Below, in pieces: positions 93 to 5,055 of a stretch of DNA of 5,055 nucleotides. Under the pieces are notes generated by a model. That model had not been told where the DNA came from and did no database searches. It was given only the letters and a program-made list of their open reading frames with translations. Origin of the DNA: a virus (Duplodnaviria; Heunggongvirae; Uroviricota; Caudoviricetes); IMG/VR virus record IMGVR_UViG_2706794666_000005; one strand, 5' to 3'. A program made the translations under genes and the position numbers. Each line of letters opens with the position of its first letter. The stretch's first letter is position 1.

Positions 93-422
93 ATGACCCC
101 TGCGGGGTATAAAATGTATCAGATGGAAAAAATATCAACAGGCATTGCCTACGGCACCCTTGCCACTGTCGCCAGACAAATTAACCCGTACATCAAAGTC
201 GATATACCGGAAACAACGCGCGGCGCTCTTTACTCGTTCGTTTACAACGTGGGCGCTGGCAATTTCAGAACATCGACGCTTCTTCGCAAAATAAACCAGG
301 GCTATATCAAAGGCGCATGTGACCAGCTATGTCGCTGGACATATGCTGGCGGTAAGCAATGGAAAGGGCTGATGACCCGTCGTGAGATTGAGCGTGAAGT
401 CTGTTTGTGGGGGCAGCAATGA
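93..422 (+). CDS. Phage GH24 (T4-type) endolysin, C-terminal fragment only; probably N-terminally truncated and catalytically inactive
   Basis: The 109-aa product from about residue 23 onward ([48 protein letters not shown]...[13 protein letters not shown]) matches, from memory, the C-terminal part of phage 21 / DLP12-type lysozymes of about 165 aa. The first 22 residues ([22 protein letters not shown]) do not. An in-frame TAA at 75-77 prevents any upstream extension. The stop TGA (420-422) overlaps the Rz ATG (419-421) as ATGA, the classic R/Rz junction. Confidence 0.6.
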
Positions 423-883
423 GCAGAGTCACCGCGATTATCTCCGCTCTGGTTATCTGCATCATCGTCTGCCTGTCATGGGCTGTTAATCATTACCGTG
501 ATAACGCCATTACCTACAAAGAGCAGCGCGACAAAAACGCAAGAGAACTGAAGCTGGCGAACGCAACCATTACTGACATGCAGCAGAGACAGCGTGATGT
601 TAATGCACTCGATGCTAAATACACGAAGGAGTTAGCTGATGCGAAAGCTGAAAATGAAACTCTGCGCGCTGATGTTGCCGCTGGTCGTCGTCGGTTGCAC
701 ATCAAAGCAGTCTGTCAGTCAGTGCGTGAAGCCACCACCGCCTCCGGCGTGGATAATGCAACCAGCCCCCGACTGGCAGACACCGCTGAACGGGATTATT
801 TCACCCTCAGAGAGCGGCTGATGACGATGCAGATGCAACTGGAAGGGGCACAGGAGTATATCCGCACTCAGTGCATTAAGTAG
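419..883 (+). CDS. Rz: Rz-like i-spanin (inner-membrane spanin subunit)
   Basis: 154 aa from ATG 419: [34 protein letters not shown]... has an N-terminal transmembrane helix, a coiled-coil-like periplasmic region and a C-terminus closely resembling lambda Rz as I recall it. I prefer ATG 419 to the ORF-track GTG 407 because of the ATGA overlap with the upstream stop. Confidence 0.9.
639..821 (+). CDS. Rz1: Rz1-like o-spanin (outer-membrane lipoprotein), nested in the +1 frame of Rz
   Basis: 60 aa, [60 protein letters not shown]: signal peptide with lipobox LVVVGC, then a proline-rich mature peptide, near-identical in pattern to lambda Rz1. AAGGAG at 625-630 sits 8 nt upstream of ATG 639. Entirely embedded in Rz in a different frame. 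Confidence 0.88.
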
Positions 884-925
884 CCTTTTTATCGTGGTAA
901 ACATTTCGCAGGGTATGAGGTATTT

Positions 926-1276
926 ATGCCATCACTAATCCCACGTGCCTGCCGTAAGCGTGGATGTGCAGGTACAACCACAGACAGTTCGGGTTACTGC
1001 GATAAACATCGCGGTGAAGGCTGGGTGCAGCACCAGCGCGGACTGAGCCGCCACCAGCGTGGCTATGGCTCAAAATGGACGGTGATTCGTGCCCGTATTC
1101 TGAAGCGCGATAAAGGTCTGTGTCAGTTGTGTCTGCGTGTCGGTGTGGTGAGCGAGGCGAAAACCGTCGACCACATCATCCCGAAAGCGCATGGCGGAAC
1201 AGACGCAGACAGCAACCTGCAGAGTCTGTGCTGGCCCTGCCATAAAGCGAAAACAGCGCGCGAACGAATCCGGTGA
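926..1276 (+). CDS. HNH endonuclease, phage packaging-associated
   Basis: 116 aa. C-terminal HNH motif (CQLC...VDHIIPKAHGGTDADSNLQSLCWPCHKAK) with paired Cys zinc ligands, and a Cys-rich N-terminus (CRKRGCAGTTTDSSGYCDKH). GAGG at 917-920 lies 5 nt before ATG 926. Sits immediately upstream of the terminase genes, as in HK97-like phages. Confidence 0.9.
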   Translation: MPSLIPRACRKRGCAGTTTDSSGYCDKHRGEGWVQHQRGLSRHQRGYGSKWTVIRARILKRDKGLCQLCLRVGVVSEAKTVDHIIPKAHGGTDADSNLQSLCWPCHKAKTARERIR

Positions 1277-1294
1277 TAATTATTCTCACTTGTA

Positions 1295-1358
1295 GGGAGG
1301 GGCGGGGCAAATCCCTGTGACCTGACGTCTTCCGGACTGCCCGCCCCATCGTTTTTTT
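1295..1358. other. GC-rich dyad-symmetry element between HNH and terS; candidate cos region or terminator-like structure
   Basis: GGGGCGGG (1299-1306) is the inverted complement of CCCGCCCC (1340-1347), about 33 nt apart. Palindromes GACGTC (1324-1329) and TCCGGA (1331-1336) lie between the arms, and a T7 run follows at 1352-1358. The position matches where cos sits in HK97-like genomes. The function is inferred, not demonstrated. Confidence 0.3.
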
Positions 1359-1397
1359 ATACCCGCGAAAAATGAAATTTAACCAGGAGTGCCGCAT

Positions 1398-1892
1398 ATG
1401 GCTGGAACGGCGGGGCGTTCCGGGCGTCGCCCCAAGCCAACGGCGCGCAAGGCGCTGGCCGGAAACCCCGGCAAGCGAGCCCTGAACAAAGATGAACCTG
1501 TTTTTACGCCCATCAAAGGTGTTGAGCCACCAGAGTGGTTCGCTGAAGAAGATCTCCCTCTCGCCACGATCATGTGGCAACTGACAACCAAAGAACTCTG
1601 CGGTCAGGGCCTGCTGTGCGTGACTGACCTGGCGGTACTTGAGCGGTGGTGCGTGGCCTATGAGTTCTGGCGACGTGCCGTGAAAAATATTGCCATACAG
1701 GGCAACACCATCACCGGTGCAATGGGCGGCAGGGTCAAAAATCCGGAGCTGACCGCCAAAAAAGAACAGGAGTCCGAGATGAGCAGCACGGGGGCAATGC
1801 TCGGACTCGACCCCAGCAGCCGCCAGCGTCTGATTGGCCTGGCGGGGCAGAAGAAAGCCACTAACCCGTTTCTGAAAATTATCGAATCATGA
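1398..1892 (+). CDS. Terminase small subunit, P27 family
   Basis: 164 aa from ATG 1398, with AGGAG at 1384-1388 nine nt upstream. The basic N-terminus with the GNPGKR motif ([28 protein letters not shown]) is typical of P27-family TerS. The stop overlaps the terL start as ATGA (1889-1892). I reject the ORF-track GTG 1389 because it has no spacer from the SD. Confidence 0.88.
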
Positions 1893-3622
1893 GCCGGAAA
1901 TCTTACCCCAACGTAAATGCTGCAAATCAGTATGCCCGGGATGTCGTGCGCGGAAAGATTGTTGCCTGCCAGTTTGTGATTCAGGCCTGCCAGCGCCATC
2001 TTGATGACCTGATGGCGGAAAAAAGTAAGTCGTTTCGTTACCGCTTCGACAAGGACCTGGCTGAACGGGCCGCGAAATTTATTCAGCTGTTGCCGCACAC
2101 CAAGGGGGAGTGGGCATTCAAACGGATGCCCATCACGCTGGAGCCGTGGCAGCTATTTGTGATCTGCTGTGCGTTTGGCTGGGTCAATAAAGGCACCCGG
2201 TTGCGCCGCTTCCGGGAGGTGTACACCGAAATCCCCCGTAAGAACGGCAAATCAGCAATCTCTGCCGGTGTTGCCCTGTATTGTTTTGCCTGTGATAACG
2301 AGTTTGGCGCGGAAGTGTATTCCGGTGCCACGACAGAGAAACAGGCGTGGGAAGTCTTTCGCCCGGCGCGACTGATGTGTAAACGCACACCCATGCTGAC
2401 GGAAGCGTTCGGGATTGAGGTTAACGCCTCAAACATGAACCGTCCGGAGGATGGCGCGCGGTTTGAACCGCTGATCGGCAACCCAGGTGATGGTTCATCA
2501 CCCCACTGTGCCGTGGTTGATGAATATCACGAGCATGCCACCGATGCGCTTTATACCACAATGCTTACCGGGATGGGGGCGCGACGTCAGCCACTGATGT
2601 GGGCCATCACCACCGCCGGGTACAACATTGAGGGGCCGTGCTACGACAAGCGGCGGGAAGTCATCGAGATGCTCAACGGCTCGGTGCCTAACGATGAACT
2701 GTTCGGGATCATCTATACCGTTGATGAAGGTGACGACTGGACCGGCCCGCAGGTGCTGGAAAAAGCCAATCCAAATATTGGCGTGTCGGTTTATCGCGAA
2801 TTTTTGTTAAGTCAGCAGCAGCGTGCGAAAAATAACGCCCGTCTGGCAAACGTCTTTAAAACAAAACACCTCAATATCTGGGTGTCGGCGCGTTCGGCGT
2901 ATTTCAACTTGGTGAGCTGGCAGAGCTGCGAGGATAAATCACTGACCCTTGAGCAGTTCGAGGGGCAGCCGTGCATTCTGGCCTTTGACCTGGCGCGTAA
3001 GCTGGATATGAACAGCATGGCGCGACTTTATACCCGCGAGATTGACGGTAAAACGCATTACTACAGTGTGGCCCCGCGTTTCTGGGTACCGTATGACACG
3101 GTGTACAGCGTCGAGAAAAATGAAGATCGACGGACAGCCGAACGCTTTCAGAAATGGGTGGAAATGGGCGTTCTGACCGTTACCGATGGTGCGGAGGTGG
3201 ATTATCGCTACATCCTCGAGGAGGCCAAAGCGGCGAACAAAATCAGCCCGGTCAGTGAGTCACCCATCGACCCCTTCGGGGCGACCGGGTTGTCACATGA
3301 CCTTGCTGATGAAGACCTGAATCCCGTCACTATCGTCCAGAACTTCACCAATATGTCCGATCCGATGAAAGAGCTGGAAGCAGCGATTGAATCGGGACGT
3401 TTTCATCATGACGGCAATCCCATCATGACCTGGTGTATCGGCAACGTGGTCGGCAAAAACATGCCGGGTAACGATGATGTGGTGAAACCCGTCAAAGAGC
3501 AGGCGGAAAACAAAATCGATGGTGCAGTTGCGCTGATTATGGCGGTTGGCAGAGCCATGCTGTACGAGAAAGAAGACACGCTGTCTGACCACATTGAGTC
3601 CTACGGGATCCGCTCGCTTTAA
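1889..3622 (+). CDS. Terminase large subunit (ATPase/nuclease)
   Basis: 577 aa. Walker A-like IPRKNGKS at nt 2231-2254, Walker B-like CAVVDEYHE, and a C-terminal nuclease-like region with conserved acidic residues ([24 protein letters not shown]). Size and position fit a Terminase_1-type TerL. Translationally coupled to terS. Confidence 0.92.
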
Positions 3623-3633
3623 CTGAGGTAATT

Positions 3634-3816
3634 ATGATCATGCTGATTCTCGCGCCTCTGGTGGGCGTGCTGGGTGCGCTTTTGCTGGCGTATGGTGCCT
3701 GGCTGATTTATCCCCCGGCGGGTTTTGTTGTTGCCGGGGCGCTGTGCCTGTTCTGGTCGTGGCTGGTGGCGCGATATCTCGACCGTACACGGCAGTCTGT
3801 CGGCGGAGGTAAATAG
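3634..3816 (+). CDS. Small hypothetical membrane protein (two predicted transmembrane helices)
   Basis: 60 aa, [60 protein letters not shown]: two hydrophobic helices and a basic C-terminal tail. GAGGT at 3625-3629 lies 4 nt before ATG 3634. Codon usage is host-like (ctg, gcg, ggt, gtg). Its last codons carry the SD for the downstream portal start. Confidence 0.6.
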
Positions 3817-4972
3817 TGTTCTTTTCGGGATTATTTCAACGAAAAAGCGATGTGCCGGTGACCACGCCAGCAGAACTGCTGATGCTATCGGGCTGTCATA
3901 CGACACCTATACCGGAAAGCGGATCAGTAGCCAGCGGGCCATGCGCCTGACGGCGGTCTATTCTTGCGTCAGGGTGCTGGCAGAGTCTGTTGGTATGCTG
4001 CCCTGCAGTCTCTACAAAATCAGCGGTACCCTGAAAACACGGGCGGTGGATGAACGACTGCATAAGTTGGTTTCGGCAAAACCTAATGGCTACATGACAC
4101 CGCAGGAATTCTGGGAGCTGGTTATTGTCTGCCTGTGTCTACGGGGGAATTTTTACGCCTACAAGGTAAAGGCACTGGGAGAAGTGGTGGAGCTTCTTCC
4201 GATAGATCCGGGCTGTGTGGAACCGAAGCTGAACAGCCAGTGGCAGCCGGTTTATCAGGTGACGTTTCCGGATGGTTCCGTGGATGTGTTGACCCAGAAT
4301 GAAATCTGGCATGTGCGCACCCTGACGCTGGATGGACTTGTCGGGCTGAATCCCATTGCGTATGCGCGTGAGGCCATTTCACTGGCAGCGGCAACCGAGG
4401 AGCACGGTGCCAGGTTGTTTAGTAATGGTGCGGTGACATCCGGTGTGTTGCGTACGGAACAAAAGCTCACGCCGGATGCTTACGAGCGTCTGAAGAAAGA
4501 TTTTGAGGAGTGTCACACGGGGCTTGGCAATGCTCACCGCCCGATGATTCTGGAAATGGGGCTGGACTGGAAGTCGATGGCGCTGAACGCCGAGGACAGT
4601 CAGTTCCTGGAAACCCGCAAGTTTCAGCTGGAAGAAATCTGTCGTCTGTTCCGGGTGCCGTTGCACATGGTGCAGAACACCGATCGCGCCACCTTCAACA
4701 ATATCGAAGAGCTGGGGCTGGGATTTATCAACTATTCACTGGTGCCGTATCTGACCCGCATCGAACAGCGGATCAACACCGGACTGGTACGAAAAAGTAA
4801 GCAGGGCGTTTATTACGCCAAATTTAACGCCGGGGCGTTACTGCGCGGGGATATGAAGTCCCGTTTTGAAGCCTACGCCACCGGGATCAACTGGGGAATT
4901 TACTCTTCCAATGACTGCCGCGACCTGGAAGATATGAATCCGCGTCCCGGTGGTGTAATGCCGATCAGTTAA
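3816..4972 (+). CDS. Portal protein, HK97 family; start and body are in different frames as read (apparent 1-nt frame break near 3890-3893)
   Basis: The body (frame 2, to stop 4970-4972) has HK97-portal hallmarks: RLTAVYSCVRVLAESVGMLPCSLYK near the N-terminus and FLETRKFQLEEICRLFRVPLHMV. The best start signal is GTG 3816 in frame 0, with a perfect GGAGG (3805-3809) 6 nt upstream, overlapping the upstream stop as TAGTG. Frame 0 gives MFFSGLFQRKSDVPVTTPAELLMLSG... but hits TGA at 3948-3950. The span is not a multiple of 3. Confidence 0.8.
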
Positions 4973-5004
4973 GGATCAGTTGACCGATCCAGTGGCTGTG
5001 TAAG

Positions 5005-5039
5005 AATCCGGAAACGCTCACTTGTTTCCGGATTTTTTT
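5005..5039 (+). terminator. Rho-independent terminator downstream of portal
   Basis: atccggaaac (5006-5015) pairs perfectly with gtttccggat (5024-5033), 8-nt loop gctcactt, followed by a T-run (5034-5039). The T-tract is present only in the + orientation. Confidence 0.7.
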
Positions 5040-5055
5040 ATGCACATTGGACAGG

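Follow-up and report, generated by a model that had tools for sequence, protein, structure and literature searches.

A portal pseudogene with a one-nucleotide deletion and an IS4 truncation in a degraded prophage of Shigella sonnei

The window, meaning the whole stretch of 5,055 nucleotides that was analysed, was found to carry a gene for an HK97-family portal protein whose start lies in frame 0 and whose body lies in frame 2, so that start and body are in different reading frames as the initial annotation had stated. The reading favoured here, at a probability of roughly 95%, is that the gene is an inherited portal pseudogene, carrying a 1-nt deletion and truncated by IS4, within a degraded phiP27/ST64B/SfII-type prophage of S. 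sonnei. In the proposed course of events, one G would have been lost from CTGGC to leave CTGC at 3876-3879, and ribosomes starting at the GTG at 3816 would leave the portal frame after codon 21 and then stop at the TGA at 3948, giving a peptide of 44 aa. Independently, IS4 would have inserted after codon 380 and removed the last 33 codons. Because of the 1-nt deletion after codon 21 and the IS4 insertion after codon 380, the locus is classed as a pseudogene of an HK97-family portal and not as a functional member of the family; judged from its sequence, it would probably yield no functional portal.

Prophage setting and retained packaging genes

An exact-protein look-up identified the window as the whole of contig CWSX01000201.1 of the draft assembly GCA_001248295.1, and the end of this contig falls within the IS4 repeat. 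From 158 to 5055 the window is 99.96% identical to CP000038.1, the accession of S. sonnei Ss046 (PMC6562246), with differences only at 303 and 330. Its gene content, taken from the ORF list and Pfam scans, is that of the late region of a lambdoid-type prophage, with a partial lysozyme (93-422), an Rz-like gene (407-883), an HNH endonuclease (926-1276), TerS (1389-1892) and TerL (1889-3622). Among intact relatives, phage phiP27 and a small number of E. coli prophages come closest (about 96% identical over 3600-4300); ST64B, SfII, SfIV and SfI come next at about 85% identity. A degraded S. sonnei prophage of the phiP27/ST64B/SfII type has its late-gene end in the window. No intact allele of the same prophage was found in complete E. 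coli genomes, where the best match was 95.9% identical, and a 194-nt stretch with the lost base restored found a best match of 94.8% in these genomes and no direct ancestor. With no intact allele of this exact prophage found, the deletion may be older or younger than the IS4 insertion.

Bases 1-157 of the window have no collinear match to the S. sonnei reference. Positions 1-59 correspond to DNA that precedes the holin gene, 60-113 look like the terminus of an IS110-like ISEc20 element, and 114-158 comprise holin codons 1-15; from there the sequence jumps over 403 bp and continues midway through the lysozyme gene. The fusion ORF of 109 aa created by this holin/lysozyme jump (93-422) is present in this one contig only. 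A de Bruijn-graph misassembly seems a more likely origin of bases 1-157 than a real deletion, as the segments are 45-59 nt long and lie at the contig end; a strain-specific lesion is possible.

Two complete genomes, CP044191.1 and CP032523.1, carry the same prophage remnant with 65 alignment positions that differ from the window, all inside the lysozyme/Rz region (window 167-850) and with identity from 851 on, a pattern of sequence that suggests recombination with the lysis cassette of another prophage. Inside the Rz-like gene, an ORF of 60 aa (639-821) is nested out of frame, and its equivalent in one S. sonnei locus (L021, 3006-3188) was matched by Pfam Rz1 (PF06085); this is the usual nested Rz/Rz1 spanin arrangement.

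From 926 to 3816, the genes for HNH, TerS, TerL and the YmfR-like protein are intact ORFs beside the dead portal. The exact TerL was present in 4305 collection blocks and the exact YmfR-like protein in 5102. In a few complete assemblies (L018, L020 and L021), TerL is split into pieces of 90 aa and 498 aa, which may be further decay or long-read errors. As to why these genes persist, it is very unlikely that the DNA-packaging module has been kept for a function, for example helper/satellite use or interference with incoming phages; the alternative is that the module has merely not yet decayed.

Portal start, lost base and portal body

Upstream of the portal stands an intact ymfR-like gene for a small membrane protein of 60 aa (3634-3816, + strand; ORF list), whose TAG stop at 3814-3816 overlaps the portal start by 1 nt. 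The same ymfR-like/portal arrangement is annotated in phiP27, E. coli A36, C311 and SfII, and 'YmfR' is the RefSeq name of the 60-aa neighbour in several E. coli relatives. Direct reading upheld the portal start at GTG 3816 that had been proposed, with its Shine-Dalgarno GGAGG 6 nt upstream (3805-3809, + strand), and this motif is invariant in 7 of 7 aligned sequences. The equivalent of GTG 3816 is the annotated start of the 413-aa portal in phiP27, E. coli A36, C311, 2015C-4136CT1 and SfII, and the ST64B record alone has the portal annotated 3 nt further upstream. Portal codons 1-21 (MFFSGLFQRKSDVPVTTPAEL) occupy 3816-3877 (+ strand) in the start frame, the last codon, CTG, being completed by G3878; read in frame 0, they agree with the N-termini of six intact portals at 20 of 21 residues. 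As had also been noted, frame 0 ends at the TGA at 3948-3950, and the frameshift ORF (3816-3950, + strand) therefore comprises 44 aa, of which 21 residues are native and 23 are out of frame. The protein look-up held no gene on record for this 44-aa product, because gene callers do not call it.

DNA alignment with six intact relatives (phiP27, E. coli A36, C311, 2015C-4136CT1, SfII and ST64B) showed that the window lacks exactly one base against all six and is otherwise collinear with them. The site of the 1-nt deletion is 3876-3879 (+ strand), where CTGGC in the relatives is CTGC in the window: the relatives read GA(G/A) CTG GC(G/A) GA(T/G) GCT ATC GGG, and the window reads GAA CTG CT GAT GCT ATC GGG. 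What the window has lost is one G from the GG pair beside G3878, and the substitutions nearby (GCT GAT versus GCG GAG/GAT) leave a formal ambiguity as to which of the two Gs was lost.

A single-base deletion between start and body is what the initial annotation had proposed, and comparison with the orthologous locus in related prophages agrees with it, all six intact relatives carrying the extra G in a single frame. The deletion had been placed in or next to the GGG run at 3890-3892, and here the proposal has to be corrected, the true site being about 12 nt upstream. A deletion within GGG 3890-3892 was rejected because the run and the flanking ATCGGG are identical in the window and the six relatives; the surrounding motif ctatcgggctg, given earlier as 3884-3894, lies at 3885-3895. 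Homologues align in frame 0 and then in frame 2, as expected from the two-frame layout, with the switch after 21 residues and not 25, and frame 2 matches the portals from residue 22 on (ADAIGLSYDTYTGK...). The earlier reconstruction of the junction, AELLMLSG-LSYD, was wrong over 5 residues. In the protein alignment the intact junction is AEL followed by ADAIGLSYD, and the intact protein across it would read ...TTPAEL-ADAIGLSYDTY....

The portal body, residues 22-380 (ADAIGLSYDTY...NPRPGG), extends over 3878-4955 (+ strand) in the -1 frame relative to the start, with no further indels or stops. When one G is inserted, a gapless match over 380 residues is obtained at 97% identity to the 413-aa phiP27 portal. 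The repaired translation of 380 aa is recognized by both HK97-family portal profiles, scoring 359.2 bits against PF04860 (cutoff 39.1; profile positions 2-321 of 321) and 263.7 bits against TIGR01537 portal_HK97 (cutoff 112.05; profile positions 3-343 of 343). On the DNA level, the repaired 194-nt stretch matches spans of 194 bases in 25 of 25 E. coli records among the matches listed, with coverage of at least 80% in 1340 records. One uninterrupted frame for the whole portal, which has 413 aa in close relatives, was not found at this locus.

The body frame opens after a stop at 3704 and, as originally described, holds no ATG or GTG upstream of ATG 3941; the only start-type codons between this stop and ATG 3941 are TTG at 3725, 3728 and 3731. 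What gene callers report as 'portal' is an ORF of 343 aa (3941-4972, + strand), whose last 5 residues and stop come from IS4. The record of the window itself and most S. sonnei loci carry this call, the exact product is present in 1695 collection blocks, and in the Ss046 record a 414-aa TTG ORF from 3728 is called instead. These calls in most assemblies and in Ss046 speak for a gene without any frameshift, starting at ATG 3941 (the 343-aa ORF) or at TTG 3725/3728 (an ORF of 414-415 aa), but such a start is highly improbable. The homologues are annotated from the GTG 3816 equivalent in 5 of 6 cases, with ST64B 3 nt upstream, and in 6 of 6 residues 1-21 correspond to frame 0 of the window, whereas frame 2 upstream of 3878 resembles the N-terminus of no portal and overlaps, in a different frame, the ymfR-like gene. 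Furthermore, ATG 3941 is an internal Met of the family, portal residue 43. It is the frameshift that gives rise to both 'portal' ORFs, of 343 aa and 414 aa.

IS4 truncation and missing head genes

The initial annotation was right in treating the frameshift as a lesion, yet its account was incomplete, as the IS4 truncation and the absence of the head module had been missed. Portal homology ends at 4955 with the last 33 portal codons removed, and 4956-5055 (+ strand) is the terminal 100 nt of IS4 (TAATGCCGATCAGTTAAGG...), which interrupts the portal after codon 380 and has a TAA stop at 4970-4972 inside it. This segment agrees at 100 of 100 nt with the IS4 end that interrupts mlc in the E. coli laboratory strain ME8067, and in 2695 E. 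coli records it hits sequence annotated as IS4 transposase. Complete S. sonnei loci continue beyond it with the gene for an IS4-family DDE transposase (PF13006, PF01609), and both marks of IS4, the terminal sequence and the transposase gene, were found. The portal/IS4 junction is identical in every fetched locus that reaches it.

Past the IS4 transposase, complete S. sonnei genomes continue, by strain, with another IS and bamE-recN or with raiA-pheL-pheA. The far side of IS4 adjoins other IS or chromosomal genes in these bamE or raiA contexts, and not portal sequence; the differing contexts suggest IS-mediated rearrangements between strains. The roughly 4.6 kb downstream in finished S. sonnei genomes was found to contain neither the 3' end of the portal nor DNA for a prohead protease or capsid. 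The portal has TerS and TerL on its upstream side, but no protease or major capsid gene over this downstream stretch. This location has therefore lost the last 33 codons of the portal along with the adjacent head genes. As the inspection covered about 4.6 kb past IS4, the head genes could have been relocated elsewhere in the chromosome by an IS-mediated inversion.

Another reading is that the two-frame layout serves a function and that a full-length portal is made near 3878 through transcriptional slippage or a programmed -1 ribosomal frameshift. Programmed frameshifts are known in other phage morphogenesis genes, for example those of tail assembly chaperones, and a -1 shift past codon 21 would bring back the portal frame. 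Nevertheless, such a mechanism is extremely improbable at this locus. A slippery heptamer of the form X XXY YYZ was absent from 3816-3945, as was a homopolymer from the deletion site, and the two-frame arrangement is not conserved among homologues, the portal of 6 of 6 intact relatives being read in one frame with the extra G. On the absence of the heptamer and the single frame of the relatives, programmed frameshifting was rejected. In addition, IS4 cuts the 3' end and the downstream head genes are missing, which means that no capsid module is left beside the portal to assemble with.

Inheritance of the lesions and comparison with known systems

Loci were fetched that carry an exact copy of TerL, of the YmfR-like protein or of the 343-aa portal ORF. 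In 27 of 27 fetched loci, representing 22 assemblies besides the window's own, bases 3816-3950 were byte-identical; many of the 22 assemblies are complete chromosomes, finished S. sonnei Ss046 included. Byte-identity in 22 other assemblies, with finished genomes among them, excludes a sequencing error. Of the two alternatives offered by the initial annotation, this supports the genuine inactivating frameshift, and the homopolymer sequencing error was rejected on the same identity and on the position of the deletion outside the GGG run. There is hardly any chance that the base is missing through a sequencing or assembly error such as a homopolymer miscall, with the gene intact in the organism: although the window is a short contig of a draft assembly and its first 157 bases resemble a contig-end mosaic, the identical sequence stands in complete chromosomes such as CP000038.1, the lost base came from a GG pair and no long homopolymer, and the sole nearby run of at least 3 bases, GGG 3890-3892, is intact. 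Nor was the lesion confined to a single assembly or technology. Every S. sonnei assembly examined has the frameshift, which is inherited. Since both lesions, the frameshift and the IS4 truncation, are common to independent S. sonnei assemblies, they are inherited mutations and not errors of one assembly.

An exact 36-mer across the frameshift had no match in a contig collection with one genome per species. GTDB puts Shigella with E. coli, and this null result is expected because such a collection would hold a single E. coli/Shigella representative.

The portal of Stx2e phage phiP27 (CAC83556.1, L38) and its orthologues in E. coli prophages, Shigella phage SfII and Salmonella phage ST64B stand in the same order as in the window, with TerL, a 60-aa membrane protein and then the portal. 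Portals of the phiP27 type also have a GTG start that overlaps the upstream stop, together with a Shine-Dalgarno, the same as in the window. Unlike them, the window copy is one G short after codon 21 and is interrupted past codon 380 by IS4, and whereas the phiP27-type portal is followed by prohead protease and capsid genes, the portal of the window is without them. In the e14 cryptic prophage of E. coli K-12, beeE is a portal pseudogene adjoining ymfR. This is a related ymfR-portal arrangement in which a portal remnant likewise lies inside a defective prophage, but the prophage and the lesions are different from those described here.

IS4 is one of five IS that have expanded in all Shigella species, and it contributes to functional gene loss there (PMC7373316). 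In the IS-driven decay of Shigella genomes (Hawkey et al. 2020, PMC7373316), likewise, an IS4 copy interrupts a gene, as in the present locus, where the lesion is common to the S. sonnei assemblies examined; the target here is a prophage structural gene and not a chromosomal metabolic gene, and a point frameshift is added. The probable background of the two lesions is relaxed selection, acting on a defective prophage whose host genome is rich in IS and decaying.

For the annotation of S. sonnei genomes, the finding means that the 343-aa and 414-aa 'portal' ORFs are pseudogene artefacts, and for the prophage itself that it probably cannot build heads. The locus is an ordinary pseudogene in a decaying prophage, of a kind that is already well known, and it opens no new question. 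In conclusion, it is one more case of the well-documented IS-associated decay of Shigella genomes.
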